Below are positions 10,176 to 34,197 of a stretch of 43,726 nucleotides of DNA, one piece after another (the first letter of the stretch is position 1; each line of letters starts with the position of its first letter). Made by a program: the position numbers and the translations under genes. The notes beneath the pieces were generated by a model that had not been told where the DNA came from, made no database searches, and was given only the letters and a program-made list of their open reading frames with translations. Source of the DNA: an uncultured Synergistales bacterium (GTDB taxonomy: Bacteria > Synergistota > Synergistia > Synergistales > Aminobacteriaceae); assembly GCA_937897575.1 (NCBI GenBank), contig CALCQG010000102.1:1-43726 (forward strand). The letters are read 5' to 3'.

Positions 10176-10208
10176 AGCCACACCTCCCTCATGCATCCGG
10201 ACAGGGCT

Positions 10209-10952: not shown

Positions 10953-11024
10953 CGCCCTCCCCGATATGATTGATTCCACTCATCGCGTACTCGTAATGTG
11001 AAAGCCGACACAAGCCTCTCTTGG

Positions 11025-11033
11025 ATTCTACCA
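11025..11033 (-). promoter_or_regulatory. Extended -10 promoter candidate (TGgTAGAAT)
   Basis: Minus strand reads TGGTAGAAT about 70 bp upstream of the 10952 start, in an AT-rich patch. Confidence 0.4.
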
Positions 11034-11123
11034 AATATTTCCTGAAAAAACGTAGAGCGCGGCATCAAATCGCAAAATCACCTCTCTTTTCGCCGCAGCG
11101 CCCTGACGCATTGCCGGAAGATT

Positions 11124-11777: not shown

Positions 11778-11875
11778 GACGCTCTCCCTCCATCCGTTCC
11801 GTTTTTTTCCGTCCTCACCGCGAATCCCCTCGCGCTCCGGAGCAAGGCCGACAGGCGCCCTCGCCCCGAGTCGGT

Positions 11876-13003: not shown

Positions 13004-13452
13004 GGTCCTCCCTCCTCGCCGACGGATGCTCTTCACTTCCGTCACCAGAAGTATATCGGACAAAAGCGGTCGCGCCACCGCCCGAAGGGCGAAACCACCC
13101 CGGGAGTTGGGGTGGGCTTTGCGACCCCTGGCGCGACGTCGCGTCCCCGTGCGCGCGCAATACGGATGAAGAAGACGCTCTCACCGGGGTTGTTCCCCAG
13201 GACGAAGGGGCCATCGTGACGAAGGGCATGGGATCGGCCCGACCGACGACGCGGCGGAGCGCCGGGTTCTGCGCGGCCATCGATCCCCCTCTTCCCCTCG
13301 CCCCGGTCGTCCTTCGGCAAGGCGTCGGCTCCCCCCTCGAAGGCGGAGAGAGTCCGCACCCCTCCTGTATAATTCCCGTGGATCGACTATACTGCACGGA
13401 GGGGGCAAGCTGCGCAGTGGAGAGCTCCCCCCCCCCTTCAGGAGGAGTGCCC

Positions 13453-16239
13453 ATGGGCCTCATCGGGAAGCTGTTCTCCGGGTTCCGAACCGACGATCAC
13501 CATACTCCGGACATAGGTGCGCTGAACGGGGACGGAGTGACGCTTCTCATGACCGCCGTCCGTGAGGGAGACCTCCAGGAGCTCGAAAGACTCCTGAAGG
13601 CCGGTGTCGACGTGAACGCGCGCGGTGAGAGGGGTTGGACGCCTCTTATGGTCGCGGCGGACAGAGGAGATGCCCGCGTCCTGAAGGCCCTTCTCGAAAG
13701 GGGCGCGGACGTCGACGGACGGGACGGGGACGGCTGGACGCCGCTCATGGTTGCCGCGTGGGGCGGCGGAGAACCGGGGACGGTGGACATCCTTCTCGAG
13801 CACGGAGCCGACGTGAACGCCCGGGACAAGGACGGCTGGACGCCCCTGATGTTCGCCGCGGACGGAGGAACCTCCCGCGCCCTGAGGGCCCTTCTCGACA
13901 GGGGGGCGGACGTGGACGCCCGGGACGGAAACGGTTGGACGCCGCTCATGCACGCCCTGCAGCGCGACGGAGACGGAGAGATCCTCCGCGCCCTCGTCGC
14001 GGCGGGCGCAACGGCGCACTTTCCCGACAGCGAAAGCAGAATGGTCCTCCTCGGCGGCAGGGACGCCGAAACCCTGAAGCTCCTCGCCTCCGCCGGGCTG
14101 GACATGGATGAAAGGGACGAGACGGGGAGGACGCTCCTCATGGTCGCGGCGGCGGAGAACCGGGCCGCCATGGTCCCCCTCATCGAGGCCGGAGCCAACG
14201 TGGACGCCGAGGACGAGGATGGAGGAACGCTTCTCATGCGCGCCGCAAAGGACGGGGACCTCGACCTGCTGCGGCTGCTCCTCGAGGCCGGAGCCGATCC
14301 CGACAGGAGCAACAGGAACGGCGGGACGGCCCTTCTGTTCGCGGCGGGCCGCCGGGAGAACCCCGAGCCCTTGCGGCTCCTCATCGCCGCCGGAGCGGAC
14401 GTGAACAAGGCCGACGCCGACGGCGTAACGCCCCTCATGGTGGCTTCGGACAGCGGCAAGGCCCTTTCCGCCGTCGAAACCCTCGTGGAATCCGGTGCCA
14501 AGGTCGACGATCAGGACAGCAGCGGGAGGACGGCCCTCATGTACGCGGCCCAAAGCAACGAAAACCCCGACATCCCCGTCTTTCTTATGAAAAACGGCGC
14601 AAGCGTCCATGTGAGGGACGGCCGCGGGGCGACGCCCCTCATGTTCGCCGCGTGGAGCAACCCGAACCCCGACGTGCTGAACACTCTTCTGCGTGCCGGA
14701 GCCGACGTCCGCGCCCGGGACAAGGACGGCTGGACGGCCCTCACCCTCGCCGCCCGACGAGGGGCTTCCGACGTCCTGAAGATACTCCTCGGCGCGGGGG
14801 CTCCTGTGGACGACGCGGGAAGGGACGGCGAGACGGCGCTGCTCTGTGCCGCACGGCACGGGCACTTCGAGGTTATGAAGCTCCTCGTCGATTCGGGAGC
14901 AAACATAGGCGAAGGCGACAGAAACGGACGATCCGCCCTGGCGTACGCCGCCCGGGGGGACAGCCCGGAGATGGTCGCCTTCCTCATCCACAGGGGCATG
15001 GAGATCGACTCCCGGGATATCATCGGCGCGACCCCCCTCATGGCCGCCGCCCGATACGGCTCCACCCCCGATACTCTCACCCCGCTCCTGAAGGCCGGGG
15101 CGAACATCCACGCGCAGGACAACGACGGCTGGACGCCCCTCCTGTTCGCCGCCCTCAACGAGAACGTCGCGCTCCTGAAGGCCCTCGTCGCCGCGGGGTG
15201 CGACACCGACGCCAGGGCTTCCGACGGCACGACGTCCCTCATGATGGCCGCCCGGTACAACAGCAACCCCGACGTCCTCAAGGCCCTCGTCGACTCCGGG
15301 GCGGACGTCCACGCCCGGGACAAGGACGGCTGGACGGCCCTCATGTTCGCGGCCTGCTTCAACCCCGTCCCCGATGTCCTGAACCTCCTCCTCGACAGAG
15401 GGTCCGACGTGAACGCGCGGGACCTGAAGGGTTGGACCCCTCTCATGCTGGCCGCCTGGGGGAACCCCGACGCGCGGATTCCGGAGCTCCTGACGGACGC
15501 GGGAGCCCCGCTCGACGGCATCGGCGGCGAGAGGAGGAGCACCCCTCTCATGATCGCGGCGGAGAACAACACCAGCCTGGAGGTGCTGCGATTTTTCTTC
15601 GACGAGGGGGCGGATGTGAACGCCCGCGACGGGGAGGGCTACACACCGCTCATGGCCGCGGCGCAGAAGAACAAAAATCCCGACGTGCTGGACGCCCTCG
15701 TGAAAGCCGGAGCAGACGTCAACGCCCAGGATGGGGACGGATGGTCCGCCCTCATGTACGCCGCCCGATACGGCAGCGGGACCGCGGCGCTCCGGACCCT
15801 CATCGACGCCGGAGCGCACCTCGAGGCGCGGGACAGGGACGGCACCACGGCCCTCATGTTCGCCGCGTGGAAGAACGACGACCCTCAGGTCCTGCAATGC
15901 CTCATCGAGGCCGGAGGCGATGTGGACGTACGGGACCACGCAGGCTGGACGCCCCTTCTGTGCGCCGCCCGCCACAACAGGACCCCCCGGGTGACGGCCC
16001 TCCTCATCGAGGCGACGAACGACGTCAATGCCAGGCACGAGGGCGACTGGACCCCTCTCATGGTGGCCGCGAAGTACAACACCCCCGACGTGCTGCGGCT
16101 CCTCCTCGGCGGCGGAGGGGACGCGAAGGCGCGAAACGCCGGCGGACGACGCGCTCTGGACTACGCCGAGAAGAACGAGCTGATCGCAGGGACCCCTGAA
16201 CACTGGATGCTGAGCGAGGCGACCTTCAGGAAGGAGTGA
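13453..16239 (+). CDS. Large cytoplasmic ankyrin-repeat protein (928 aa, roughly 25 or more repeats)
   Basis: Repeated GADVNARDxDGWTPLMxAA units over nearly the whole length; SD AGGAGGAG before MGLIGKLF; no signal peptide. Confidence 0.93.
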   Translation: MGLIGKLFSGFRTDDHHTPDIGALNGDGVTLLMTAVREGDLQELERLLKAGVDVNARGERGWTPLMVAADRGDARVLKALLERGADVDGRDGDGWTPLMVAAWGGGEPGTVDILLEHGADVNARDKDGWTPLMFAADGGTSRALRALLDRGADVDARDGNGWTPLMHALQRDGDGEILRALVAAGATAHFPDSESRMVLLGGRDAETLKLLASAGLDMDERDETGRTLLMVAAAENRAAMVPLIEAGANVDAEDEDGGTLLMRAAKDGDLDLLRLLLEAGADPDRSNRNGGTALLFAAGRRENPEPLRLLIAAGADVNKADADGVTPLMVASDSGKALSAVETLVESGAKVDDQDSSGRTALMYAAQSNENPDIPVFLMKNGASVHVRDGRGATPLMFAAWSNPNPDVLNTLLRAGADVRARDKDGWTALTLAARRGASDVLKILLGAGAPVDDAGRDGETALLCAARHGHFEVMKLLVDSGANIGEGDRNGRSALAYAARGDSPEMVAFLIHRGMEIDSRDIIGATPLMAAARYGSTPDTLTPLLKAGANIHAQDNDGWTPLLFAALNENVALLKALVAAGCDTDARASDGTTSLMMAARYNSNPDVLKALVDSGADVHARDKDGWTALMFAACFNPVPDVLNLLLDRGSDVNARDLKGWTPLMLAAWGNPDARIPELLTDAGAPLDGIGGERRSTPLMIAAENNTSLEVLRFFFDEGADVNARDGEGYTPLMAAAQKNKNPDVLDALVKAGADVNAQDGDGWSALMYAARYGSGTAALRTLIDAGAHLEARDRDGTTALMFAAWKNDDPQVLQCLIEAGGDVDVRDHAGWTPLLCAARHNRTPRVTALLIEATNDVNARHEGDWTPLMVAAKYNTPDVLRLLLGGGGDAKARNAGGRRALDYAEKNELIAGTPEHWMLSEATFRKE

Positions 16240-16577: not shown

Positions 16578-17750
16578 CTATCTCATCTTTTCGGCGAGCT
16601 CCTTGAGCTTGCAGTCCTTCCACTTCAGCTTGTGGGCCTGAAAGGCCGCGGTGTACTTGAGCCCGCTGCCCGTCATGATGAGGACGGCCGTCGAGCCCTC
16701 GGCGACCAGTCCCTCCTCCCGGGCGTTCCGGAGACAGGCGAGCGGGACACAGGACGCCGGCTGGCCGAAGAAACCCTGGCGGGCCATATGCTTCTGGGCC
16801 TTGACGATCTCCTTCTCCTTGGCCCCCAGGGCAACACCGCCGTACCTTCTCAGCTCGGCGAGCACCCTGTTCCCGCTCGGGGGGAAGGGGTTCTCGATGG
16901 CGTGGGCGATGGTATGGGGGGACTCGAAGGGCTTGATCCGCTCCTCACCGGCGTCGAAGGCGGCCACGATGGGCGAGCACCCCTGGGCCTGGGCGCAGAG
17001 AAACCTGGGCATCCTGTCCGTCAGTCCGGCCGACAGCAGGTCCTCGAAGCCGTTGATGATGCCCCGGAGGTTCCCCCCCGCGCTGGTCGGGACCACAACC
17101 CAATCAGGGACGGAGAACCCCCGCTGCTCGGCGATCTCGAAGGCGATGGTCCTCGATCCCGCGACCCGAAAGGGGACGTCGGAGTTCATGAAGTAGATGC
17201 CAAGCTCTGCTCCGAGACGGATGCTCTCCTTGTAGAGCTTGTCGTAGGCTCCTTCGACGCGGAGGAGCGTCGGCCCGTAGATGGCCACGGGGGCCATCTT
17301 CTCCTCGTCCGTGTCGCCCTTCACCAGGATCACGGCCTCCATGCCCGCCGCCGCACCGTAGGCGGCCACCGACGCCGCCATGTTGCCCGTGGAGACGGTC
17401 CCGATCCGGCTGAACCCCAGCGCCCGGGCGTGGGCCACACAGGCGGCCGTCCCCCGGTCCTTGAAGGACCACGTGGGGTTCGCGCTCTCGTTCTTTACCT
17501 GGACGTCGGCAAGTCCGAGCTCGTCGGCGAAGTCCTTCACCGAAACGAGGGGCGTGTTCCCCTCGCCGAGGGAGACCCACTCGCCTTCCTCGAAGGGGAA
17601 AAAGATCGCCCTGTCCGTCCGTTTCTCCGCCGCCCCCTCGCCTCCGTCCCAGACAAGGTCGAGAGGCTCGCCGCACTCGCACCGGAAGGTGGGCGTCCGG
17701 GCGTCGTAGTTTGCGCCGCAGCTCTTGCACCGCAACAAGGCGTTTCTCAT
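16578..17750 (-). CDS. thrC: Threonine synthase (PLP-dependent)
   Basis: N-terminal CxxC...CxC, SLGEGNTPL, KNESANPTWSFKDRG (PLP lysine), STGNMAAS, TGSGLK. Confidence 0.85.
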   Translation of the reverse strand: MRNALLRCKSCGANYDARTPTFRCECGEPLDLVWDGGEGAAEKRTDRAIFFPFEEGEWVSLGEGNTPLVSVKDFADELGLADVQVKNESANPTWSFKDRGTAACVAHARALGFSRIGTVSTGNMAASVAAYGAAAGMEAVILVKGDTDEEKMAPVAIYGPTLLRVEGAYDKLYKESIRLGAELGIYFMNSDVPFRVAGSRTIAFEIAEQRGFSVPDWVVVPTSAGGNLRGIINGFEDLLSAGLTDRMPRFLCAQAQGCSPIVAAFDAGEERIKPFESPHTIAHAIENPFPPSGNRVLAELRRYGGVALGAKEKEIVKAQKHMARQGFFGQPASCVPLACLRNAREEGLVAEGSTAVLIMTGSGLKYTAAFQAHKLKWKDCKLKELAEKMR

Positions 17751-17849
17751 CGGATGTACCTCCTCAATTGAACTTCTTCTCGATTGTACATCGCCCCGTC
17801 GATTTTTCAACAGGCGCCCGGCACCGCGACAGAAGGCCTGGACAGTCCC

Positions 17850-17970
17850 CTACTTCAGGCGCTCGAGAGCTGATGTCCCCTTCACCAAGGGGTTCTTCGC
17901 CGCGAGCGCGGCAGCCGATTCTCCCGCCCCGTTCTTCGCCTTCGGATCGGCCCCGGCCTCAATGAGGGCA
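17850..17970 (-). pseudogene. Displaced 3' fragment of an ankyrin gene (paralogous to the end of 25783..27153)
   Basis: Encodes ALIEAGADPKAKNGAGESAAALAAKNPLVKGTSALERLK* versus ALLEAGADPKAKNGAGESAAALAAKNPLVKGSDAEERLKKTAP*. Confidence 0.8.
17876..17960. repeat. 85-bp direct repeat, copy 1
   Basis: Matches 25821-25905 at 83 of 85 positions by manual alignment. Confidence 0.95.
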
Positions 17971-18124
17971 TCCTTGCGGATCGATTCGCCGCGGCGAACG
18001 CGAGAGGGCGTCCACAACCCCTCCCGCTGCATGCATTCACGTCACGCTGGATACCACAGGTTCTTCAGCCTCAGGAGGTCTCCTCCCCGAACGGCAATCA
18101 TGGGAGAGGTCAACTCTCCCTCGT

Positions 18125-19462
18125 TCAGAACTTGGTCTTTTTCAGAACCCACCACGGCGCCATGCTGGAGTCCAGGTGCCCTCGTCCCGTCATCTCCCAC
18201 ATGATGGCGAAGGCGGACCACAACCGTGTGAAGAACGCGAAAACAGGCATGAGGGGAAGCAGCGGGATGAGGTGACGGTCCTCCTTCGGACGTTCCGAGA
18301 GGAAGAAGAGCGTGATGAAGAAGAAGAACACCTCCACGGCGAGGTAGAAGACGTAGACGATGAGGAAAATGGCCGCTACGACACGAAGGGGGGCGACGAC
18401 GAAGAGGAGCAGGGTGTAGAAGAACAGAAGGATCGGCGTGATGATCTGAAAGAAAAGGCCGCCTACGAGCATCACGATGAGATTGAGCCATCCGATGAGA
18501 TGGACGGCGAAGGATCGGAAGTGCTTGACGAAATAGAGGAAGAAGAGGTCCCCGTCCCATCGAAGCCGCTGTTTGAAGAAGCCCTTGAAGGTGTCCGGCG
18601 CGTCCGTATGGCCCATAACCTCGGGGTCGAAGATGATGCGCATCTTCTTCTCCCTGTTGAAATAATTCTTCACCCGTATGGTGAGGTCCAGGTCCTCCGC
18701 CGTTCCGCTGTCCCAGCCTCCTATGAGCTCCAGGGTCGTTCTCCTGAATATTCCGAAGGCCCCCGAGATGTTGTTCACGGCGTTGAACTCGCTCAGCCCC
18801 GTCTTGCTTGCCATGATGGAGACGAGGTATTCAACGGCCTGCAGGGCCGCTGCAAGAGAGACTCTCCAGTTCCTGACCCGAAGGCACCCCGAGACGCACG
18901 CCACGTTGGGGTCGACGAAATGCCGGGTCGCCTTGTCCACCATGTCGTTGTCGAAGGAGGTGTCACCGTCCATGACCATGATGATGTCCCCGGTCGTGAC
19001 GGCGTACCCGGCGTTGAGCGAGGAGACCCTTCCGCCCCTCTGCCGTTTCGGAAGGGGTTTCAGGACTCTGTTGGGGAGGGCGTTGACCCACTCCTCCATG
19101 TCGAGCGCCGCTTCATAGGTGGCCTTGTTCTGCACCGAACCGTCGATGACCGGGATGATCTCCATCTTTCCCGGGTAGATCTGCTCTGCGAGAGAGCGTA
19201 TGGTGAGCTGGATATCCTTTCCCTCGGAATAACAGGTGATGACGCAGGAGACGGAGGGGTAAAAGGGCACCCGTTCGGGGGTCTCCTCTGTTTTTCTGAG
19301 GATGTACTTCATGAGTCCGGCGAGCACCAGGAGATAGTATGGAAGCTCGAGGAAGAGGATGAGCGGAACGAACTTGAAGAGGACCACCCACATTTCGGAG
19401 GAGAAAGGGTCGCTGAGCAGCCCTCTCATGCTCCGGATCAAGAAGGTCATCCAGTCCCCCAT
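18125..19462 (-). CDS. Processive GT2 polysaccharide synthase (PgaC/IcaA/HasA-like)
   Basis: N-terminal TM; ITCYSE, IDGS, MDGD (DxD), SGAFGIFRR, AEDLDLT, QRLRW; C-terminal TM helices; no PilZ domain. Confidence 0.9.
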   Translation of the reverse strand: MGDWMTFLIRSMRGLLSDPFSSEMWVVLFKFVPLILFLELPYYLLVLAGLMKYILRKTEETPERVPFYPSVSCVITCYSEGKDIQLTIRSLAEQIYPGKMEIIPVIDGSVQNKATYEAALDMEEWVNALPNRVLKPLPKRQRGGRVSSLNAGYAVTTGDIIMVMDGDTSFDNDMVDKATRHFVDPNVACVSGCLRVRNWRVSLAAALQAVEYLVSIMASKTGLSEFNAVNNISGAFGIFRRTTLELIGGWDSGTAEDLDLTIRVKNYFNREKKMRIIFDPEVMGHTDAPDTFKGFFKQRLRWDGDLFFLYFVKHFRSFAVHLIGWLNLIVMLVGGLFFQIITPILLFFYTLLLFVVAPLRVVAAIFLIVYVFYLAVEVFFFFITLFFLSERPKEDRHLIPLLPLMPVFAFFTRLWSAFAIMWEMTGRGHLDSSMAPWWVLKKTKF

Positions 19463-19467
19463 GATCG

Positions 19468-20820
19468 TTATTCTCCCTGCATGCGCTCCAGAAGCAGCTC
19501 CGCCGTCTCGCCCCGTCTCAGATCGTCCGGGAACCCCGCGAGTTTCACCGCGATGTCGAGCACGGTGCCGTCGGGCTGACGAGTGAACTCCCGGAGGTCC
19601 CGTATCCTCGATGCAACGATGCCGGCGCCTGTCTTCGGTGTTTTCGGAAGCAGCAGGACAAGGTTATGTCTCGAGGTCCTGGTGCTGATGTCCGTGGACC
19701 GGATCAGCTCCTTCAGCCGTTTCGCGAGAGCGTCGAAAAGTTGCAGGCTCTTGTGGCGTCCCATGGTGGCGCTGAGCTCGTCGAGGTTGGGAAAGGAGAC
19801 CACGAGCAGACCGAACGGGTCCACGGGCGGGCGCTGGGCCAGTCGAAGCATCCAGTCGAGGATATAGTTGAAGGGCTCGGGCTTCATGTAGTTCAGCGTG
19901 TCGAGGAGCATGTACATCTCCTCGGTGACGCCGCTTCGCACCGCCATAAATCCTTTGTCGGAAAGAGCGTACTCCCTGAACGACCGGGGCACGAGCTCCT
20001 CCGGCGTGCTGCGCTTTCCGCAGAGAAGGCAGTAACAGGCTATCTTCGGCTCGTTGAAGGTGTGGGAGCAATCCCTGCACTCGTAATTCTCCAGCGGGCG
20101 ATCGTAGTCCGACCCGATGTGGCGCAGTTTCGTATGGCAGAAGGGGCACTGCAGCCCCGAGTCGGTGAGGAACTTCTCCTGGGGCGCCACTCTCCCGCAG
20201 GTGAAGCAGTGAATGAATGGGACCTGGTGAATATCGATGCTGTCACAGGAGGGGCAGGTCTCCACATAATTGATGTGGGCACCGTCGCACTTGGGACATC
20301 TCCGAATCCTGTCCACGAGAACCCCTTCAGTGAGGTATCCTTTTTCGAAAAGATCCTGGATCCATCGGTCGCTGTCCAGCTCCTGCATCGAGAGCGCCTC
20401 GGCAAGAGGGTAGGAATACAGCCCGGGAGAGTATGGATCGAGATGGGGTCGCAGCGTTTTGTTCTTCCTCGAAAAGAGAAAGGCGAGCAGCCGGAAATCC
20501 AGGTTCCGACGGATCAGATTCTGGTCAATTTCCCCGAGGCGCTCCAGAATGCTCTCGGCCGTCTGCTCCATCTCCGATTCGGAGGATGAGGGTGCGTCGA
20601 CCAGTTCGATCTCGCCGGCCGCAGGTTCGCCGTCCAGAAAGAGAGGCAGGAGCGCTGTATCGTTTCTCCCTCTGATGGCTTCTATTCTCTCGGCGCGCTT
20701 CTTCCCCGCGGATAGGATGAAGCCTGCGGGAAGAGGCTCTCCCTCGGCGGGAAGCACGCTGTCATCGTCGAGACGGAGGAGCCGGATCGCGGCGCGGGCG
20801 TTTAGTTCTTCTCCATGCAT
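19468..20820 (-). CDS. Multi-zinc-ribbon (TackOD1-like) protein with C-terminal degenerate GGDEF domain
   Basis: Six CxxC (CPKC, CPSC, CFTC, CPFC, CRDC, CLLC); C-terminal IRSTDISTRTSRHNLVLLLP aligns to RxxD-xxxR-xGGDEF-xxLLP; SD GGGAGG. Confidence 0.8.
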   Translation of the reverse strand: MHGEELNARAAIRLLRLDDDSVLPAEGEPLPAGFILSAGKKRAERIEAIRGRNDTALLPLFLDGEPAAGEIELVDAPSSSESEMEQTAESILERLGEIDQNLIRRNLDFRLLAFLFSRKNKTLRPHLDPYSPGLYSYPLAEALSMQELDSDRWIQDLFEKGYLTEGVLVDRIRRCPKCDGAHINYVETCPSCDSIDIHQVPFIHCFTCGRVAPQEKFLTDSGLQCPFCHTKLRHIGSDYDRPLENYECRDCSHTFNEPKIACYCLLCGKRSTPEELVPRSFREYALSDKGFMAVRSGVTEEMYMLLDTLNYMKPEPFNYILDWMLRLAQRPPVDPFGLLVVSFPNLDELSATMGRHKSLQLFDALAKRLKELIRSTDISTRTSRHNLVLLLPKTPKTGAGIVASRIRDLREFTRQPDGTVLDIAVKLAGFPDDLRRGETAELLLERMQGE

Positions 20821-20836
20821 GGTGGACCTCCCTTTC

Positions 20837-21958
20837 CTATTCGTGCTCGAACAAGGAGAGACTCTGACGGATGGAGAAGCCGAAATGAACCGACAGAGGC
20901 AACCCCTCCACGCGGAGGGCATCGGGCAACGGTTCGTCGAAGGCGACTTTGACGAGCAGCATCTGTTTGCCTTCGTCGAGGACGCCGGACAGCTCCGCCG
21001 GAATGCGCACCGCGAGCTCGGGCGCGGAGCTCACCCTCCCCTCCATGGAGGAACCATCAGAGAAACGGACTGTGACCGGCTTCCCTGGCTGCGCATACCC
21101 CAGGTGTCTGGGCTGAAGATACGCCACGACCTGGACGGACTGCGGGCGCCCCAGGAGGACGAGCGGCGCACCGGAAGGAAGGATCTCGCCCTCGGACGGG
21201 AAGATATCCAGCACACGCGCGTTCTCAGGGCTTCGGATCGTGAGCTGGATGCTCCGGGTATCCAACAGCTTCAATTCGGCTTCGATCTGATGGATCCGGT
21301 TCTTTCTCTGGGCCTCCGATTCCAGCTCGTAGTAGGAGGGCCCCTGGGCCACAGGCTGAGGGACGGGCGACGCCGATTCCCTGAGGCTCACCAGAGTGAG
21401 TTCGGCCTGCCGATGCCGGTCCTCGGCCTCGTTGAGTTCCGCGCGGGTCGCGGCCCCCTGTTTAAAGAGGGACCGCACGGTCTCCCGATAGGCCCTCTGG
21501 TACTCCGTGTTCTGCTGTGCAAGGCGAAGCCGGTCCTTCGACACGGAGGCAACCGGAGCGGGTGCCTGAGGCGTCTGGGCGGCGGGAACCCCTTCCCGAA
21601 GCCCCTCCATCTCCGCCGAGAGAAGGATCTTTCGCTGCTCCAGCGCCGGATCATCGAGCCGGAGCAGGATATCGCCCGATACCACCGATGCGCCGAGCTG
21701 CACCTCGATGCGGGCGACCGTCGCGGGGAGCGGGGCGTTCACGCTGACCTTTTCGAGGGAGATGACGCCCGGGGCGGTCACGAAGAAGACAGCCGATGCG
21801 ACCCTCCAGATGAGGAACAGCAAGGGCGTCGAAAGGAGCAGGACCAGAAGACGCCACTTCCACTTCGGGATCGCTCGTTTCGCCGGAGCGTACGGAATCT
21901 TCATGCCCCCTTCGCGATCGGGGTTTTCTTGTTGGGATGGGGAAAAATTGACTTTCAT
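20837..21958 (-). CDS. HlyD-like membrane fusion (periplasmic adaptor) protein
   Basis: N-terminal TM; lipoyl halves VNAPLPATVARIEVQLGASVVSGDILLRL and IRSPENARVLDIFPSEGE around a helical hairpin containing GAATRAELNEAE; ATGA overlap with the upstream gene. Confidence 0.85.
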   Translation of the reverse strand: MKVNFSPSQQENPDREGGMKIPYAPAKRAIPKWKWRLLVLLLSTPLLFLIWRVASAVFFVTAPGVISLEKVSVNAPLPATVARIEVQLGASVVSGDILLRLDDPALEQRKILLSAEMEGLREGVPAAQTPQAPAPVASVSKDRLRLAQQNTEYQRAYRETVRSLFKQGAATRAELNEAEDRHRQAELTLVSLRESASPVPQPVAQGPSYYELESEAQRKNRIHQIEAELKLLDTRSIQLTIRSPENARVLDIFPSEGEILPSGAPLVLLGRPQSVQVVAYLQPRHLGYAQPGKPVTVRFSDGSSMEGRVSSAPELAVRIPAELSGVLDEGKQMLLVKVAFDEPLPDALRVEGLPLSVHFGFSIRQSLSLFEHE

Positions 21959-24126
21959 CGGGCCATCTCCCTGTAATCCTCCCAGGCCTGGACGACAACG
22001 CCCGAAAAGACCGGCGAGGAAAGTTGGTGTTGGATCGTTTGTATGATGTCACGCACGCGGCGCGTCCCGCGGGAGAAGAAACTCTCCGAGGGCGGCAGCG
22101 TTTTTTCCACTGAGATCGCGAGGGAGAGGTGCAGAGCGGGCCACTGTCTCCCGATGGCCTTCATCCTCCGAATGACGGCCTCGACATTCGTCGAGTACAC
22201 CATGACCGTCACCTCGCTGACCTTTGCTCGGGCGAACCCCTTGGCCGCAATAGGTCCGAGCTCGCCTTCGAGGTAGCGGGGGTGGACGGAGAGCCCCAGC
22301 GGCCACGGAGCGATCGCCGATACGGCCTGTACCGTGTCGATGAGGCTCTCCAGAAGCTCCTTCCTTCGGGTTGCCGATCCGGCTAATTGGTCCGGCTCGA
22401 GGTCGAGATGAAGGCCGGAAAAATTCAGGGATTTGAGGTCGGAGACGAGGAGGAGAAGCTCCTTTCGATGCTCGGCGAGAATCCACGAGGGGTCCCCGAG
22501 GAGCAGCTCCACAGACAGCCCGCTCGCCTTTGCCGCGGAGAGCGTTTTATCGAGTCGCTCCCTGACGGCCGTGTCTCTCAGTCTCGCTATGCCCTTGCCG
22601 GTGAATGAGACCAGCGCTCTGGAAAAACCGGCGTCCCGAACCGTTCGAAGGGTGCGATCGGCCCCGTCGGAAAGAAGCGTGTCGCCGCTCCAGAGATAGA
22701 GGCCTGGCCGGATGTCCCGGGCAGTGCTGCCCGCTGGCCCGCCAGTGTCTTTATCCAGAGCGATCCACGAGGGAGACAGTGCTTCGCCGTCCTCCGGGAA
22801 CGACGAGGATATGAGCCGGTCCGCCGTTTCATAGCCTGTCCGAAGCATCGGGATGGCTCCCAAAAGTTCAGCGTGGGTCTGGAGAATCATTCCTTCGCTC
22901 TCGATGAGGTCCATGGACGCGGAGAAGTAGTTGAAAATATCGCGAAAGAGCTGTTCGAGAGTATCACCAGGGAGGGATGCATGTCGGAGACGCCCCTCCC
23001 GAACGCCCTCGGCCGCCGATCTCAGACGGACGAAGGAGAACTCCCTCTGGGATATTCCGTAGTCGTAGCGCGCGAGGCCCTCCGTTATATCCGAGAGAAG
23101 ATCCCTTTGCCGAATCTCCCTCTCCTGACGGCTCCGCTCGATGCTGGCGCGCGACGCTCTGCCCGCGGCGGCGGCCGCTTTCGCTTCCCCCCATGGAACG
23201 TCAAAACCGAGGGTTATGAATACGTTCGAACCGTCACCGCCGGGAAACTCCCTGTAGAATCCCACCCCCGCCCTGAGAAAGGCTTCGTACTGCGATCTCG
23301 GAGCATGGCGGGCGATCTCCTCCTTCTTGTCGATCGTCCGATCGAGGAAGGACAGTTCGTCACCAGCCTCTTCGCGGACGTATCGAGAGAGCAGCTCGTT
23401 GGAATAGGCGACGTCGGGAAGATGCGGAGTCTCCGTCGTGAACCTTTGCAGGCTGCCCCGCCCCGTGGCCTTTCGGACGACGCGCATGGCCTCCTCGGAC
23501 GTAAGGGCCGACGAGGACAACGTACGCCGCGCATAGGAGAACCAGCTCTCCATCTCGAGGCGGTCACGTTCGAGCAGAAATCCGCTTTTCGTTCTCGCTT
23601 CGAGCAGGGGAAGAAGCTGCGGCTCGAGGCGGAGAAAGCGTTCGAGAAAGGCCTGTTTCCGCTGGTTTGTCCAGAGGAGGATATAGGCCTTCCTGAGTGC
23701 GATGAGATTGGCCTTCTTGAGCACGGAGAGCCGCCTCTGTTCTTCCAGAGTACGAACAGCCGCTTCGAGCTCCTTGATGCGCTCCTTCCTCCACGTCCCG
23801 AACAGCGGGATCTGAATCCCCGCCTGAAGGGAGAGTTCGGAGTACCACTCATCGTCCGTGTCGTTTCTGTGTACGAGCGGCTCCCTGTTCCCCGAAAGAG
23901 AGACGTTGGCGAACCACCTGGGGCCGTTTTCCGCCCTCTGGCGCTCTTCGAGAGCGGTGCTCTCCGCCACGGAAGCGGCAGCCTCCAGCACTTCCGGAGA
24001 GCAGGTCACCTCCTGCTCCAATACGGCAAGAGGGATAACGTCCGCTGCGCAAACCGAGACCGCGAAAACTGCCAGCAGCGCCATGCATACGACCATCACC
24101 GGAAGGATCGCCCCGGCTCGTTTCAT
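21955..24126 (-). CDS. TolC-like outer membrane factor fused to a C-terminal glycoside-hydrolase-like TIM barrel
   Basis: Signal peptide; OEP-like segments (SPEVLEAAA, LQAGIQIPLFG, LRKAYILL, FITLGFDVPW); after a linker, LYLWSGD...VELLLGDPSW...FSGLHLDLEP...VTVMVY...GVVVQAW. Confidence 0.75.
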   Translation of the reverse strand: MKRAGAILPVMVVCMALLAVFAVSVCAADVIPLAVLEQEVTCSPEVLEAAASVAESTALEERQRAENGPRWFANVSLSGNREPLVHRNDTDDEWYSELSLQAGIQIPLFGTWRKERIKELEAAVRTLEEQRRLSVLKKANLIALRKAYILLWTNQRKQAFLERFLRLEPQLLPLLEARTKSGFLLERDRLEMESWFSYARRTLSSSALTSEEAMRVVRKATGRGSLQRFTTETPHLPDVAYSNELLSRYVREEAGDELSFLDRTIDKKEEIARHAPRSQYEAFLRAGVGFYREFPGGDGSNVFITLGFDVPWGEAKAAAAAGRASRASIERSRQEREIRQRDLLSDITEGLARYDYGISQREFSFVRLRSAAEGVREGRLRHASLPGDTLEQLFRDIFNYFSASMDLIESEGMILQTHAELLGAIPMLRTGYETADRLISSSFPEDGEALSPSWIALDKDTGGPAGSTARDIRPGLYLWSGDTLLSDGADRTLRTVRDAGFSRALVSFTGKGIARLRDTAVRERLDKTLSAAKASGLSVELLLGDPSWILAEHRKELLLLVSDLKSLNFSGLHLDLEPDQLAGSATRRKELLESLIDTVQAVSAIAPWPLGLSVHPRYLEGELGPIAAKGFARAKVSEVTVMVYSTNVEAVIRRMKAIGRQWPALHLSLAISVEKTLPPSESFFSRGTRRVRDIIQTIQHQLSSPVFSGVVVQAWEDYREMAR

Positions 24127-24721
24127 TGCTCATCGTCCTTTCTCACAGCGCGCGAATCCGATAGGCATGACGTGAAAATATCTGCTTTCAGAAAATGAGA
24201 CGAGTTCATATTATAGTCAGGAAAGAGAAAAACACCAGAGGAGAGAAGCTGAATTCTTCCGACGACCTGTCGGTGTTCAGTATATGGGCGCGAGTAGACG
24301 AAAAGAGGCGTAGTGCCCTGATTTGAGGAAGGGTTGGCGCGGACCCTGCGCGCCGCGACAGAACGGAGAGAGCGCGCCCTACCGGAAGGGCGAGAAGGTG
24401 CTTCTGAAGAGAGAGGGTTTCCATGCATCGGAGGACTTTTCACGGCAGCTGAGAGCGCACAAAGATTGTATAACACCTGGCCCTTGAGACTTTTGGCGGG
24501 GGCTCCCGGAGAGACGCCCGGTAACCGCTGCAAATCCCATGGAACAGATGCCGGACAAACCAATATCATAGCCCGCCTGCTGCATCGATGGGTCATCAGA
24601 GTAGTCCGACCACCTGCACTGCCCGACCTCCAGACGGAGGTGCGGGAAACGCACAATGCTTGTTCCACCTTATGCCTTCGTCTTTTTTACTTTTGTCCCC
24701 TGCTTGCCCTGCCCGCGGCGG

Positions 24722-25717
24722 TCAACCGTCCTCCCTCGCGAGGTCGGCGAGCCCCTCCTCCAGAGATACTCGAGGCACAAAACCAAGGACTCTCTCCGCT
24801 TTCGAGATGTCCGCAGCGCTATGGAGGACATCCCCAAGTCTTTTCGGAGCAAAGAGAGGGTTTGTCTCTTCGCCGCGCTGTCCTGTGACGGAACGTATCA
24901 CATCATACAGATCGAGCAGACCAACGGGGGATCCCGATGAAATGTTGAACACCTGTCCGAAGGCGTCCTTGCGCTCCGTCGTGCCGGCGAGAATATTCGC
25001 CTCCACCACGTTGCGAACGTGGCAGAAACCTCTGGTGTTCGAGCCGTCGCCGTACACGGTCCCCGGGCGTCCTTTTTTGAGGGAGTTCATCCACGCCGCC
25101 ACGACCGCCGCATAGGCCCCCTTGGGGTCCTGCCTCGGGCCGAAGATGTTGAAATAACGAAGGCCGACCGTCGGAACTCCGTAGGACTGCCAGTACAGGG
25201 CACCCCATAATTCGTTGTCCCGCTTCGACAGTCCGTAGGGGGAGATGGGAGCCACCGGGGATTCCTCCGTCTTCGGCAACCCCGGAAGGTCGCCGTATAC
25301 GGCGCTGGATGAGGCGTACACCACACGGCTTCCCTCGGCCCTGGCGGCATCGAGAATATTGATGAACCCTTTGGAGTTCACATCAAAGGTGAGCGTGGGG
25401 TGTTCCACCGAAAACGGGACCGAGACGACCGCCGCATGATGCAGGACCGCAGATGCCCCCCTGCATGCTTTTCTGCATACCTCCGGGGATTGAATGTCGC
25501 CTTCGACGAAGGTGAACCGTCTTTGCTGCTCCGGCCGGATCTTTGCCAGGACCTTTTCGAGGTTCTCCCTGTGTCCTGTCGAGAAGTTATCCACTCCGAC
25601 GACATCCTGGTCGAGGGACAACAACCCCTCGACGAGATTCGACCCGATAAAGCCGGCGGCTCCTGTCACTGTCCATCTGGTTTGTTTCAGGGAGACACTC
25701 CGATCAAAAGACCCCAT
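24722..25717 (-). CDS. Extended-SDR NAD-dependent epimerase, WbpP/TviC-like (probable UDP-GlcNAc C4-epimerase)
   Basis: TGAAGFIGSNL, DNFSTG, YASSSAVYGD, SPYGLSK (YxxxK), LRYFNIFGPRQDPKGAYAAV; SD GAGGAGG. Confidence 0.85.
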   Translation of the reverse strand: MGSFDRSVSLKQTRWTVTGAAGFIGSNLVEGLLSLDQDVVGVDNFSTGHRENLEKVLAKIRPEQQRRFTFVEGDIQSPEVCRKACRGASAVLHHAAVVSVPFSVEHPTLTFDVNSKGFINILDAARAEGSRVVYASSSAVYGDLPGLPKTEESPVAPISPYGLSKRDNELWGALYWQSYGVPTVGLRYFNIFGPRQDPKGAYAAVVAAWMNSLKKGRPGTVYGDGSNTRGFCHVRNVVEANILAGTTERKDAFGQVFNISSGSPVGLLDLYDVIRSVTGQRGEETNPLFAPKRLGDVLHSAADISKAERVLGFVPRVSLEEGLADLAREDG

Positions 25718-25782
25718 ACCCTGACCTCCTCATTCGCCACGGGGTGACATCCCCGTTCTTGTACAAGCGTACCACGCGCTTT

Positions 25783-27153
25783 TCACGGTGCGGTTTTCTT
25801 CAGTCGTTCTTCGGCGTCGCTCCCCTTCACCAAGGGGTTCTTCGCCGCGAGCGCGGCGGCCGATTCTCCCGCCCCGTTCTTCGCCTTCGGGTCGGCCCCG
25901 GCCTCCAGCAGCGCAAGAACCGATGACGCCGTCCCCAATTCCGCCGCAGCCAGAAGAGGTGTGTTGCCCCTCTTGTCCTTCGCCTCGACGTCGGCCTCCC
26001 TGTCCAGCAGGGAGGCGATGAGGACCGCCCCGCCGTCGCTCCGGGCCGCCGCGTGGTGCAGCGCCGTCTGCCCCGACGCATCCCGGGTGTTCACGTCGGC
26101 CTTTGCCTTGGCAAGATCCCGGACGGTCCATGGATTCCTGCGCACCCTCGCGGCCTTCATGAGCGCCGTCTCGCCCGCCTTGTCCTGCAGGTTCACGTCG
26201 GCGCCCGAGTCGAAGAGCCTGCGGACGACGTCGTTGTTTTCATTATAGGCCACGGCGAGCATCAGGGCCGTCCGGCCCTCGCCGTCCTTCCCGTCCAGCG
26301 CGGCCCCGGCGTTGACGAGAAGGGAGATGACGTCCGGGTTCGGGTTGAAACGGGCGGCCACCATGAGGGGGCCGCCCGCCTGCGGCAGGGAACCGTTCAC
26401 GGGCAGGCCCTTTTCAAGAAAGAGGGCCGCCACGTCGAGGCTCGGGTTATGCTGCAGGGCAAGGGCGAAGGCCGCCGCCCACCCGTCCTTGTCCTCCTCC
26501 ATGAAGAGCGCCACCACCTCGGGATTCGGATTGCCGCGGGCGGCCAGCATCAGAGGCGTCTCGCCCGCCTTGTTCTTGCCACGGCCCTCTCCCAGTGCCA
26601 GCAGAAGGCGTGCTCCGTCGCCCACGGGGTTTCGGGCGGCGTACAGGAGCGCGCTGTTGCCCGACGCGTCGTGCGCTCCGGGGTCCGCTCCGCCGTCGAG
26701 GAGGACCTCCAGCACGCGGCTGTCACCGTTATACGCCGCGGCGTACATGAGCGGCGTGGCACCCGAGGTGTCCCGCCCGTTCGGGTCCGATCCTCCATCG
26801 ATGAGGGCCGCAGCGATGTCGGCGTTGAAGTTCCGGGCCGCCGCCATCATGAGCGCCGTTCGGCCATCGGGCAGGGCCAGGGCGGCGTCGGCCCCCCACT
26901 CCAGGAGGGTCGAGACGACGGTGGGGTCCACGGAGGAAAGAGCGGCGATCATCAGAGGAGTCCGCCCCGAATCGTCCCGTGCCTGCACATCGCCTCCGGC
27001 CCTGAGGGCGGCGAGGACCTCGTCGGCGGTCCCTCCGGCGCAGGCCCGGTGCAGCGCCCCGCCTCCGGGAGACAGGGCCGTACCCGTCGCCGGAAGAAGC
27101 GCCATGAGCACCGCCACCCCGATTCCCAACATATTTTTGCGTCTCCATCCCAT
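25783..27153 (-). CDS. Secreted ankyrin-repeat protein
   Basis: SD AAGGAGG; MGWRRKNMLGIGVAVLMALLPATGTA signal peptide; about 12 repeats such as GRTPLMIAA, GATPLMYAA, GETALMKAA. Confidence 0.9.
   Translation of the reverse strand: MGWRRKNMLGIGVAVLMALLPATGTALSPGGGALHRACAGGTADEVLAALRAGGDVQARDDSGRTPLMIAALSSVDPTVVSTLLEWGADAALALPDGRTALMMAAARNFNADIAAALIDGGSDPNGRDTSGATPLMYAAAYNGDSRVLEVLLDGGADPGAHDASGNSALLYAARNPVGDGARLLLALGEGRGKNKAGETPLMLAARGNPNPEVVALFMEEDKDGWAAAFALALQHNPSLDVAALFLEKGLPVNGSLPQAGGPLMVAARFNPNPDVISLLVNAGAALDGKDGEGRTALMLAVAYNENNDVVRRLFDSGADVNLQDKAGETALMKAARVRRNPWTVRDLAKAKADVNTRDASGQTALHHAAARSDGGAVLIASLLDREADVEAKDKRGNTPLLAAAELGTASSVLALLEAGADPKAKNGAGESAAALAAKNPLVKGSDAEERLKKTAP
25821..25905. 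repeat. 85-bp direct repeat, copy 2 (inside the ankyrin gene 3' end)
   Basis: 83/85 identical to 17876-17960. Confidence 0.95.
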
Positions 27154-27343
27154 GACAACGCCTCCTTGGTGGCCTCGGACAGCACGGCACAACGATGAAC
27201 CGACAGGAGAAACAGGACACCTCTCACGCCGCAGAAACGGGAGGACATAGCCAAAATGCCCTCCCGTCCCTATCTGGACCGCGCCCACCCGGGAGCACGG
27301 GTTTATCGCTGTCGCTCGTTCTCAGGCCTCCGGTCCGTCGTTT

Positions 27344-27634
27344 TTAATCGTCATCATCGTCGTCGTCATCCCTCTCGACGGAGAGAATCTTGCCCGAGAC
27401 GGGGTGCACCTTGAGCTCCACCTCCCGGCCGTTCCGGTAGGCTTCGATCTCCCACCGTCCATCGTCGAACTCCACGTCCACCACCGGGTGGTACCCCCTG
27501 TTCTCAACGATCCGTATGATCTCGGACAGTTTCTTGGCGTTCCTCGGGAGCCTGTCGTCGTCCGCCAGGCCAAGGGCCGGAGCAAACAGGGCAAAGCCCA
27601 CAATACACGCAAATATCGCCCAGAATTTCTTCAT
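27344..27634 (-). CDS. Small secreted PepSY-domain protein
   Basis: Signal peptide; GYHPVVDVEFDDGRWEIEAY..GREVELKVHPVSGKIL; poly-Asp tail. Confidence 0.85.
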   Translation of the reverse strand: MKKFWAIFACIVGFALFAPALGLADDDRLPRNAKKLSEIIRIVENRGYHPVVDVEFDDGRWEIEAYRNGREVELKVHPVSGKILSVERDDDDDDDD

Positions 27635-28144: not shown

Positions 28145-29701
28145 TTGAGCACCTACGAGCATGTTCGGATTTTCGACACCACGCTGAGAGACGGAGAACA
28201 GGCGGCCGGGATCAACCTGAACACCAAGGAGAAACTGCAGATCGCCGCCCAGCTCGCAAAGATGAAGGTGGACGTCATCGAGGCCGGATTTCCGGCAGCG
28301 TCCCCGGGGGATTTCGACGCGGTGCAGCTCATCGCCCGTGAGATCCCGGGACCGATCATCGCGGGGCTTGCCAGGACGAGGAGGGAGGATATCGCGGCCG
28401 CGGCCGAAGCGGTGAAGCCTGCGGCGAAGCCGCGGATCCACACCTTCATCGCCACGAGCCCCATCCACATGGAGTATAAGCTGAAGATGACCCCAGAAGA
28501 GGTCCTCGAGGAGGTCCGCCAGGCGGTGACCTACGCCCGAAGCCTCGTGTCGGATGTGGAGTTCTCCGCGGAGGACGCCAGCCGGTCGGATCCCGCCTTC
28601 CTGGGTGAGGTGTTCCGCGTGGCCGCCGAGTGCGGCGCCACGACACTCAACATCCCCGATACGGTGGGGTACGCCATCCCGACGGAGTTCGGCGACTTTC
28701 TTGCCGCGGTCATCGAGGCATCCGGCCGCCCCGACGTCATATGGTCCACCCACTGCCACAACGACCTCGGGCTCGCCGTCGCCAACTCCCTGGCGGCCGT
28801 GCGTGCGGGGATCCGGCAGATCGAGTGCACGGTGAACGGCATCGGGGAACGGGCGGGGAACGCCTCCATGGAGGAGATCGTCATGGCCCTCCGCACCAGA
28901 AGGGACAGCTTCGGATGCACCACGGAGGTCGACACGACGAAGCTCTGCGGCATCAGCTCCATGGTCTCCCGAATGACGGGCTTTCCCGTCCCGCCGAACA
29001 AGGCCATCGTCGGAGCCAACGCCTTCGCCCACGAGGCGGGGATCCACCAGCACGGCATGCTGTGCAACAAGGCCACCTACGAGATCATGAGCCCCGAGGA
29101 TGTGGGAGCCGGCAGCAGGCTCGTCCTCGGCAAGCACTCGGGCAAGCACGCCTTCCGCCAGCAGGTGGAGAAGATGGGCTACTCCCTCTCGGAGGAGAAG
29201 CTCTCCGAGGCCATGGCGATCTTCAAGGACCTGTGCGACCGCAAGGAGATCGTGACCACCGACGATCTCGAGGCCATGATCGAGACCGAGGTCCTGCGAT
29301 CGGAGGAGGGAGAGGGGCGGCGGATCGCCCTCAAGAAGTTCATGGTGCAGGTGGGGCAGGGGCACGGAACGGCCACGGTCACCATCGAGGATCAGGGGCG
29401 GCAGGTCACCGACGCCGCCACGGGGAACGGCCCGGTGGACGCGGCCTACAAGGCCATCCGACGGATCGTGGGGATCGAACCCATTCTGGAGAGCTACTCG
29501 ATCCAAGCCGTGACGGAGGCGACGGACGCCATCGGAGAGGCCCGGGTCACCCTTCTCATGGACGACATGAAGGTCATGGGGCGGGGGGCCAGCACGGACG
29601 TGATCGAGGCGAGCATGAAGGCGTACATCGACGGCATCAACCGTCTTTTCCTGAAAGAAGCCATGAAAGGGGTGCAGGTCAATGGGCAGAACGCTGGTTA
29701 G
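28145..29701 (+). CDS. leuA: 2-isopropylmalate synthase
   Basis: FDTTLRDGEQ, EAGFP, HCHNDLGLA, GIGERAGN, HEAGIHQHG, GNGPVDA regulatory domain; TTG start with SD AAGGGAG. Confidence 0.96.
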   Translation: MSTYEHVRIFDTTLRDGEQAAGINLNTKEKLQIAAQLAKMKVDVIEAGFPAASPGDFDAVQLIAREIPGPIIAGLARTRREDIAAAAEAVKPAAKPRIHTFIATSPIHMEYKLKMTPEEVLEEVRQAVTYARSLVSDVEFSAEDASRSDPAFLGEVFRVAAECGATTLNIPDTVGYAIPTEFGDFLAAVIEASGRPDVIWSTHCHNDLGLAVANSLAAVRAGIRQIECTVNGIGERAGNASMEEIVMALRTRRDSFGCTTEVDTTKLCGISSMVSRMTGFPVPPNKAIVGANAFAHEAGIHQHGMLCNKATYEIMSPEDVGAGSRLVLGKHSGKHAFRQQVEKMGYSLSEEKLSEAMAIFKDLCDRKEIVTTDDLEAMIETEVLRSEEGEGRRIALKKFMVQVGQGHGTATVTIEDQGRQVTDAATGNGPVDAAYKAIRRIVGIEPILESYSIQAVTEATDAIGEARVTLLMDDMKVMGRGASTDVIEASMKAYIDGINRLFLKEAMKGVQVNGQNAG

Positions 29702-30971: not shown

Positions 30972-30973
30972 CC

Positions 30974-34162: not shown

Positions 34163-34197
34163 TTTTTTTCTGAGAAACGCACGTACTGGTATTCCTG

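Follow-up and report, generated by a model that had tools for sequence, protein, structure and literature searches.

The locus considered here, a compact group of minus-strand genes in a 43,726-nucleotide contig from an uncultured Synergistales bacterium (the window), raises the question of whether these genes form a genuine functional unit, whether that unit is new, and by which route its product might leave the cell. A first-pass annotation had read them as a candidate uncharacterised, c-di-GMP-gated exopolysaccharide system, in which a family 2 glycosyltransferase (GT2) replaces the pump of a TolC-dependent export channel.

A conserved four-gene cassette

The four coupled genes were recovered as ORFs in the order TolC-hydrolase fusion, HlyD-like adaptor, regulator and GT2, with an ATGA overlap at the first junction and gaps of 16 bp and 5 bp at the following two (Table 1). 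Pfam and NCBIfam searches bore out the domain calls, i.e. OEP/TolC (PF02321), HlyD_3, TackOD1 (PF18551) with a partial GGDEF domain, and GT2. An Rfam scan of positions 17,700–27,500 gave no match, and a promoter/terminator scan placed no promoter-like site upstream of the cassette on the minus strand.

Table 1. Positions in the window of the cassette genes and of the features next to them.
Feature	Position	Strand	Basis
TolC-family factor fused to a GH-like barrel, 723 aa	21955..24126	-	PF02321 and fold models
HlyD-like membrane fusion protein, 373 aa, MxdC orthologue	20837..21958	-	HlyD_3 and mxd match
MxdA orthologue with TackOD1 and degenerate GGDEF, 450 aa, predicted c-di-GMP receptor	19468..20820	-	PF18551/PF00990
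Processive-type GT2 synthase, 445 aa, MxdB orthologue	18125..19462	-	Motifs and mxd match
TviC/WbpP-like nucleotide-sugar C4-epimerase; neighbour, probably outside the system	24722..25717	-	PF01370
Degenerate insertion-sequence remnant between epimerase and TolC gene	24344..24563	+	Nucleotide and amino acid identity to the G000:C124 transposase

Linkage of the cassette genes is real and widely conserved, far beyond chance. All four occur together in 67 of 80 related loci and in 48 of the 52 loci with full flanks, and the TolC and barrel portions constitute a single ORF in 46 of these 52. Two gene orders are seen among the conserved cassettes; the order regulator-GT2-TolC/GH-HlyD accounts for 55 of the 67 complete loci, and that of the window is the minority form (11/67). 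As the TolC-hydrolase gene is missing from the cassette in 3/80 loci, and from 16 of 19 loci in a 301-genome sample of another order, it is dispensable in cis. PF18551 scores above its cut-off in 31/184 genomes of the same phylum and in 20/301 of the other order, and a profile of the barrel matches 295 representative proteins (E ≤ 1e-30). Flank scans of the related loci revealed no further conserved neighbours; a single-protein scan of the genome contigs found nothing, and a profile scan did give matches.

The annotated lack of a linked pump, Wzx/Wzy/Wza, TPR-porin or polysaccharide deacetylase extends to 83 flanking ORFs from 45 loci (E ≤ 1e-15), which did include a single soluble ATPase of the ABC-F type and a single gene of the histone-deacetylase family. 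This result bears on an alternative reading, in which the HlyD-like protein and TolC serve an unlinked ABC or RND pump, secreting, for example, an adhesin glycosylated by the GT2. Pumps are the usual partners of the HlyD and TolC families, 14 of the 80 loci contain ABC ATPase genes at some position, and in a Nitrosomonas locus (L065) an RTX-repeat gene is located directly downstream on the same strand. However, no pump family is represented among the flanking ORFs, the adjacent ABC match that was scanned being of the soluble ABC-F type; loci that lack TolC still pair the adaptor with the GT2; and the two other TolC genes of the source genome adjoin pump-like genes of their own, recognised by size and a Walker A motif only. 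We regard an unlinked pump as very improbable.

The epimerase gene upstream, previously counted as part of the unit, probably lies outside the system. It encodes a TviC/WbpP-like SDR protein (285 bits, under the cut-off of 760), and a stretch of 595 bp sets it apart from the cassette. Within this stretch we found a transposase remnant that shares 72% nucleotide identity over 230 bp with contig C124 of the source genome (G000) and 41% amino acid identity (E 1e-5) with the C-terminal end of an rve/HTH transposase of 309 aa encoded there. The epimerase profile consisted of one sequence, and tblastn over the 80 related loci served as the deciding test; it returned no match in 80/80, and the gene was likewise absent from 6/6 loci of related genomes. 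A paralogue with 46% identity resides on contig C93 of the source genome. Not being a conserved member, the epimerase carries no information on the polymer sugar.

Relation to the Shewanella Mxd system

The view of the system as uncharacterised had to be given up, since Shewanella mxdABC provides orthologues for three of the four genes, and through this orthology the cassette largely matches a system that is already characterised. The Shewanella mxd locus was pinned to one genome (G431) with primer cores taken from Table 2 of PMC3691769: the cores of four published mxd promoter primers fall, in order, upstream of an ORF of 462 aa, and the 23-nt core was found in 1/179 genomes of that family. 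This ORF contains NVDEF, the motif given for MxdA in the accessible text of PMC13713693. The regulator aligns with this first mxd ORF (32% identity over 340 aa, E 8e-61), with the same Pfam architecture and an aligned RxxD motif; the GT2 aligns with the second (49% over 413 aa, E 2e-141) and the HlyD-like protein with the third (28% over 367 aa, E 2e-36). These three ORFs (mxdA, mxdB and mxdC) each match this locus alone in the source genome. In both systems the regulator gene is directly upstream of the GT2 gene, at the 5-bp junction in the window, whereas the adaptor gene lies upstream in the window and downstream in mxd. The window also adds the TolC-hydrolase fusion, whose best match in the Shewanella genome was weak (E 3e-6) and covered the TolC part only. 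The fourth mxd ORF (mxdD, 122 aa) gave no tblastn match in the source genome at E ≤ 1e-3, and we therefore file the window as a variant of the mxdABC core rather than as a full mxdABCD operon.

In a quick GT2 tree built without an outgroup, MxdB nests on a long branch among four-gene proteobacterial loci (SH-aLRT 97), so that the direction proposed for TolC-hydrolase loss is presumptive. An mxd primer scan of metagenome contigs gave no match, and a profile-based protein search returned no Shewanella-named match. Among the literature matches listed, which covered open main texts, none describes a four-gene Mxd form. According to the available parts of the Shewanella reports, mutation of mxdA or mxdB abolishes aggregation and the three-dimensional biofilm (PMC3691769), and the Mxd polymer is termed "proposed" or "putative", with no outer-membrane exit named in those parts (PMC3691769, PMC7666153). 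We consider it likely that the cassette is a four-gene form of the Mxd system, for a c-di-GMP-dependent surface or biofilm polysaccharide, with its own TolC exit bearing a predicted hydrolase domain.

The regulator consists of an N-terminal region, the zinc-ribbon domain TackOD1 (PF18551, 233 bits) and a partial GGDEF domain (PF00990, 33 bits), and contains six CxxC motifs. Its I-site, R374-x-x-D377, is kept, and SRHNL stands in place of GGDEF. RxxD is retained in 57 of 58 aligned homologues and in 14/14 three-gene loci checked, while GG(D/E)EF occurs in 0/58. These patterns exclude an active diguanylate cyclase and agree with the predicted degenerate GGDEF domain with a c-di-GMP I-site. In this the regulator resembles PelD, the separate degenerate-GGDEF RxxD receptor of the Pel system. 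The source genome encodes one intact GGDEF cyclase domain. Databases often name homologues of the regulator "diguanylate cyclase".

TackOD1 has been described as being of "function obscure" (PMC5847659). In the accessible portions of the respective papers, MxdA is reported to bind c-di-GMP (PMC11395469, PMC7666153), to change c-di-GMP levels indirectly (PMC3691769) and to bind both CheY3 and the cyclase PdgA (PMC7666153, PMC11395469); the latter two observations suggest that its action is perhaps not simple allostery. A synthase-adaptor-TolC machine whose regulator is switched mainly by another cue, for instance by a CheY-type protein, by a receiver domain fused to it, or by the metal or redox state of its six CxxC motifs, would be in keeping with the binding of CheY3 and heterologous CheY proteins by MxdA (excerpts of PMC7666153), with a 565-aa plasmid homologue that is annotated "response regulator" and adjoins histidine-kinase and Hpt genes, and with the original definition of TackOD1 as a response-regulator output domain. 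Given the retention of RxxD in the window, its homologues and the three-gene loci, and the c-di-GMP binding reported in part of PMC11395469, we deem such a switch improbable and favour c-di-GMP as the main signal.

The synthase, the adaptor and the TolC-hydrolase fusion

The GT2 exhibits the hallmarks expected of a processive-type enzyme, as the first-pass annotation had suggested (D107, D165-x-D167, TAED at 254–257 and QRLRW at 298–302), with the three Asp residues and the Q, R, R and W invariant in 58/58 aligned sequences. Hydrophobic segments at residues 20–52 and 315–390 point to a compact, PgaC/NodC/HAS-like membrane topology. The best NCBIfam model is PgaC_IcaA (TIGR03937), where the cut-off is 422 bits and the GT2 reaches 130, followed by an XrtG-associated GT and NodC (third, 74 bits); CelA reached 21 bits. 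An N-acetylhexosamine polymer is thus plausible on the basis of these motifs and rankings. The PNAG systems (PgaABCD/Ica) share this synthase model, and the fold matches of the barrel include the PgaB hydrolase domain (Z 15.7), but the GT2 falls short of the model's cut-off, and a deacetylase, PgaD and a TPR/β-barrel porin are all missing from the conserved neighbours. Self-translocation by the GT2 is uncertain due to its few predicted membrane segments and the lack of a PgaD/IcaD-like partner. The adaptor (HlyD_3, E 5.8e-10) possesses one N-terminal transmembrane segment (hydrophobic residues 35–68).

In the fusion protein, a hydrophobic, signal-like N-terminus precedes the TolC part (residues ~33–424), which is followed by a flexible linker. 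PF02321 matches in two stretches (E 3.7e-10), the AF2 model (mean pLDDT 91) displays four β-strands and long helical hairpins, and the best Foldseek match is Klebsiella TolC (E 2.7e-14, TM 0.70 by target); model and fold search thus agree on the dedicated TolC that had been proposed. A lipoprotein anchor was considered and rejected, a lipobox-like pattern being present in 1/83 sequences only.

Residues ~470–723, annotated earlier as a hydrolase, are predicted by the AlphaFold model (pLDDT 97) and fold searches to adopt a glycoside hydrolase (GH)-like (β/α)8 TIM barrel. Alignment and model place D575-x-E577 after β4, M642-x-Y644 after β6 and W715 at β8, an arrangement that we take to resemble the GH18 pattern. 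GH18 chitinase-like enzymes match PF00704 and bear the signature DxxDxDxE at β4 of a (β/α)8 barrel. D575 and E577 are invariant in 83/83 aligned sequences, and the Asp upstream of D-x-E is replaced by His in 81/83. Structure matches (VIA) gave Z scores of 18.1 for Cwp19, 17.8 for GH18 and 16–17 for GH5/GH1; with GHL10-like Cwp19, GH18 and GH5/GH1 tied at the top, no single GH family is favoured. Pfam assigned no family to the barrel, the best one being matched, weakly, by 2 of 62 members, Atlas GH18 matches fall below the 0.9 bar, and the best PDB sequence match is 10yv, a "putative GH97 from Cellulomonas fimi" (E 0.0016).

The Foldseek matches of the barrel also include GH18-like lectins and inhibitors that lack catalytic activity. 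Together with the third rank of NodC and the compact membrane domain of the GT2, they would suit a synthase that makes short oligosaccharides or a glycoconjugate, as NodC does, instead of a long matrix polymer, the TolC-fused domain then being a lectin or sizing enzyme. We assign this scenario a small probability, as mxd mutants show matrix-type phenotypes in the accessible parts of PMC3691769 and PMC7666153 and as the invariant D575 and E577 are what a catalytic pair would lead one to expect. A matrix polymer and a candidate hydrolase are the reading that we prefer. Our search of open main texts found no published account of a co-encoded TolC fused to a GH-like (β/α)8 barrel with an invariant D-x-E.

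A model for synthesis and export

The idea of synthase-adaptor-TolC export stands insofar as the cassette combines a GT2, a HlyD-like adaptor and a TolC-fold channel with no linked pump, but it is already in print for BgsAB-TolC and XcsAB-TolC. In the sections available of PMC13438883, tripartite synthase-MFP-TolC export is proposed for rhizobial BgsAB-TolC, the Bgs synthase is c-di-GMP-activated and loss of tolC abolishes the mixed-linkage glucan of Sinorhizobium meliloti. Judging by that description, BgsA differs in that its own C-terminal domain binds c-di-GMP and that seven membrane segments are predicted, and tolC, which is not described there as a hydrolase fusion, lies outside the bicistronic bgsBA operon. 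The cyanobacterial XcsA-XcsB-XcsC-TolC cellulose model likewise unites synthase, HlyD-like adaptor, glycoside hydrolase and TolC, and is called experimentally unconfirmed in the part of a review available (PMC12430437); as described, Xcs is set apart by a PilZ-gated cellulose synthase, a free endoglucanase and an unlinked TolC. The Xag/Sfz stalk-biofilm cluster was discarded as a candidate, since the BcsB-like protein and the GT2 with an N-terminal T2SS-EpsE-like domain given as its features in excerpts of PMC8250860 and PMC4643136 have no counterpart in the cassette.

Based on these comparisons, c-di-GMP would bind the RxxD motif of the dead GGDEF domain, as reported for MxdA and as the conserved site suggests here, and the regulator would turn on the GT2, probably via direct contact. 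The GT2 would polymerise a β-linked sugar, most likely N-acetylhexosamine judging from motifs and family, and push the chain across the inner membrane, perhaps aided by the membrane helix of the adaptor. The adaptor would bridge the GT2 to a TolC trimer, with the synthase in place of an ABC or RND pump, on the same plan as BgsAB-TolC. In the periplasm, the modelled TIM barrel on the TolC C-terminus may shorten the chain or remove strands that fail to enter the channel, a role akin to those of BcsZ, AlgL and the PgaB hydrolase domain. Three-gene forms, such as mxdABC, would use a housekeeping TolC.

A broader reading, to which we give even chances, holds that the four-gene cassette is the complete and probably ancestral Mxd machine, spread over Synergistota, Desulfobacterota, Proteobacteria and other phyla. 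It would be self-contained, with the GT2 for a pump and a TolC trimer that presents three hydrolase domains to the periplasm, where these domains, from an unnamed GH family, edit the chain at the wall of the channel; TackOD1 would couple c-di-GMP to the synthase, and mxdABC would be a reduced version borrowing a housekeeping TolC.

The variant points to TolC as the outer-membrane exit for the Mxd polymer, and the substrate of the small, well-folded candidate hydrolase would identify that polymer. With MxdA, the TackOD1 domain gains a member that has been studied by experiment, and the label "diguanylate cyclase" here stands, in many proteins, for a dead enzyme that is probably a receptor. As published synthase-MFP-TolC models use an unlinked TolC, a cassette with its own TolC offers the cleanest unit for testing them.

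Relation of the cassette to the Shewanella mxd operon

The four minus-strand ORFs of the cassette are joined, as first described, by an ATGA overlap and gaps of 16 bp and 5 bp (see table). The closest homologues of the regulator are found in Synergistota, e.g. Aminivibrio. Shewanella mxdABC codes for a GT2 along with a GGDEF-like and an efflux-like protein. A 23-nt mxd promoter primer core taken from PMC3691769 gave a single match among 179 genomes, in the Shewanella genome G431, where all four primer cores tried were collinear upstream of a 462-aa ORF that starts 154 bp past the "150 bp" primer. This ORF contains NVDEF, the motif given for MxdA in PMC13713693; after it come a 442-aa GT2, a 362-aa HlyD-like ORF and a 122-aa ORF. 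The first-pass annotation had called the system uncharacterised, a description that has to be withdrawn, as the window regulator, GT2 and adaptor match the first three mxd ORFs (32% over 340 aa, 49% over 413 aa and 28% over 367 aa, respectively). Conversely, each of these three ORFs matches only the cassette locus in the genome of the window, while the fourth (122 aa) has no match there. Mxd and the window cassette thus have the mxdABC core in common, and mxdD is absent from the cassette.

MxdA scored 239 bits against TackOD1, an assignment that we did not find in the published literature searched, although other papers and supplements may alter that. In the MxdA alignment, NVDEF lies off the GGDEF position, and the A-site region reads TRDGL after an intact RxxD. 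A TolC-hydrolase profile gave no more than a weak match in G431, to its TolC part. In a quick, unrooted GT2 tree, MxdB groups on a long branch with four-gene loci of Pseudomonadaceae, Halomonadaceae and Burkholderiales (SH-aLRT 97), which suggests, as far as an unrooted sequence tree allows, that the fourth gene was lost in the MxdB lineage. According to PMC3691769, mxdA and mxdB mutants show no aggregation and no three-dimensional biofilm, and the Mxd product is a "putative" EPS. PMC11395469 and PMC7666153 describe MxdA as binding c-di-GMP, with CheY3 and the cyclase PdgA as partners, and as "suspected" to trigger EPS synthesis.

Features of the window, with strand and profile evidence
Feature	Coordinates	Strand	Pfam or score
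723-aa TolC/GH protein	24126-21955	-	OEP
373-aa adaptor	21958-20837	-	HlyD_3
450-aa regulator	20820-19468	-	TackOD1 + partial GGDEF
445-aa GT2	19462-18125	-	GT2
BspA-type LRR	9597-7423
Ser/Thr kinase	13078-11876
Leucine-biosynthesis-like run	28145-32616
Branched-chain amino-acid ABC importer	32894-37577
Bacterial TMEM43-family protein	3855-5174		237 bits

Gene content, order and surroundings of the loci

A search of a genome collection with the regulator profile yielded 246 confirmed loci, the best 80 of which were retained; picked by similarity and with near-relatives among them, they are not independent. The complete four-gene set was found in 67 of these 80; of the 52 loci whose flanks span 4 kb or more upstream and 5.5 kb or more downstream, 48 have it and 46 have TolC and the barrel within a single ORF. 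Within the best 80 of 246, the order regulator-GT2-TolC/GH-adaptor predominates (55 loci), the window's order, TolC/GH-adaptor-regulator-GT2, occurs in 11, one further complete locus has a second GT2 copy and three have regulator-GT2-adaptor only; contig ends interrupt most of the remaining 10. In 40 related genomes, the six strong matches all follow the gene order seen in the window. At L098:9185-14990, the TolC-hydrolase and adaptor genes sit between two GT2 copies.

Clustering the remaining ORFs of the loci revealed no conserved fifth gene, the largest clusters having coordinates that look like shadow frames over core genes. That the adaptor and TolC instead serve an unlinked pump appears very improbable to us. 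Among the 83 flanking ORFs of 45 loci that were scanned with Pfam (89 candidates less six that were short, shadow or edge ORFs), no pump or Wzx/Wzy/Wza family was present, and the genes were unrelated. The epimerase that had been assigned to the system is a real gene, but it lies 595 bp off, past a decayed transposase fragment, and had no match in the best 80 of 246 loci.

Hits to PF18551 that pass its cut-off were present in 31 of the 184 genomes from the window's phylum and in 20 of 301 genomes of another order. Of 19 loci retrieved from the latter, 16 are regulator-GT2-adaptor three-gene operons and three belong to a divergent type whose barrel forms part of a longer protein without a scored TolC match. 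In this divergent subtype (L131:790-6532, L143, L144), a 658-673-aa barrel protein lacking a detectable TolC or Pfam domain is followed by the adaptor, the regulator and a more distant GT2.

Epimerase and cassette (~7.9 kb) are bracketed by an 85-bp direct repeat (17876-17960 and 25821-25905, 97.6% identical) that matches the 3' end of an ankyrin gene (27288-25783). Third-position GC is 0.70-0.83 in genes inside the repeats and 0.84-0.91 in five sampled genes outside, which points to an inserted block. The transposase fragment (24344-24563), a decayed 3'-end copy of an rve/HTH transposase with an intact ORF on another contig of the same genome (G000:C124:6402-7328), overlaps or adjoins the stretch in which the promoter of the cassette probably lies. 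Plasmid records from Aeromonas caviae (L011; regulator and GT2, with the others beyond the end of the record) and from Plesiomonas shigelloides (L012; three genes) likewise carry core genes, and the cassette may therefore be mobile. On a Palleronia plasmid (NZ_CP136762.1; L013:7476-11550), a 565-aa homologue annotated "response regulator", adjoined by kinase and Hpt genes, precedes a GT2 and an adaptor-like gene. Mis-binning or transfer would account for two further observations (L067, L070, L074/L075): all four genes occur together in bins assigned to Patescibacteria and Oscillospiraceae, taxa expected to lack an outer membrane, and closely related GT2s are present in one Succinatimonas and one Synergistetes bin. 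At one locus (L065:11638-14193), an RTX-repeat protein gene lies immediately 3' of the cassette and in the same orientation. A repeat/signalling gene cluster of the window (7423-16239 and 25783-27288) includes two ankyrin-repeat proteins besides the BspA-type LRR and Ser/Thr kinase genes of the table; the leucine-biosynthesis-like run and the ABC importer come after it.

Protein anatomy and a proposed model of polymer export

The 723-aa protein is predicted to comprise a TolC protomer (TolC ranked first in Foldseek), a low-confidence linker (460-469) and a separate barrel. Modelled alone (pLDDT 97), the barrel aligns with glycoside-hydrolase barrels: Cwp19 (Z 18.1, rmsd 3.6 over 241), GH18 6k7z (Z 17.8, rmsd 3.6 over 223) and GH5/GH1 (Z 16-17). 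D575, E577, M642 and Y644 are invariant (83/83). The barrel matches no Pfam family; its profile retrieves 2083 representative proteins at E<=0.001 and 295 at 1e-30. Its top sequence-profile match in the PDB, 10yv ("Putative GH97 from Cellulomonas fimi"; E 0.0016, profile positions 59-255), keeps the D-x-E-P motif and may be a solved member of the family. As the C-terminus of TolC is on the periplasmic side, the barrel would act in the periplasm. We did not find a co-encoded TolC-hydrolase fusion in the published literature searched, which other papers and supplements may alter.

In the regulator, R374-x-x-D377 is kept in 57 of 58 aligned sequences, none of which has GG[DE]EF; the genome encodes three further GGDEF domains, of which one keeps the motif intact. 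A switch other than c-di-GMP is in our view unlikely, and c-di-GMP remains the favoured ligand. The GT2 has the complete set of processive motifs; it scores best against PgaC/IcaA, far under the cut-off, and its closest sequence match among solved polymerases is hyaluronan synthase (E 1e-4). It is likewise unlikely, in our view, that the product is a short oligosaccharide instead of a long polymer.

In S. meliloti, tolC is essential for mixed-linkage glucan and a BgsA-BgsB-TolC complex has been proposed (PMC13438883); a cyanobacterial XcsAB-TolC is likewise proposed, and unconfirmed (PMC12430437). The analysis establishes the gene content, linkage, orthology and motifs of the cassette, with folds by prediction, and we infer all the interactions, the sugar and the hydrolase activity of the following model, in which the cassette would operate like BgsAB-TolC. 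We consider it probable that the regulator would bind c-di-GMP and, in that state, activate the GT2, that the chain would leave the GT2, cross the adaptor and enter the dedicated TolC, and that the hydrolase fused to TolC would trim or clear it.
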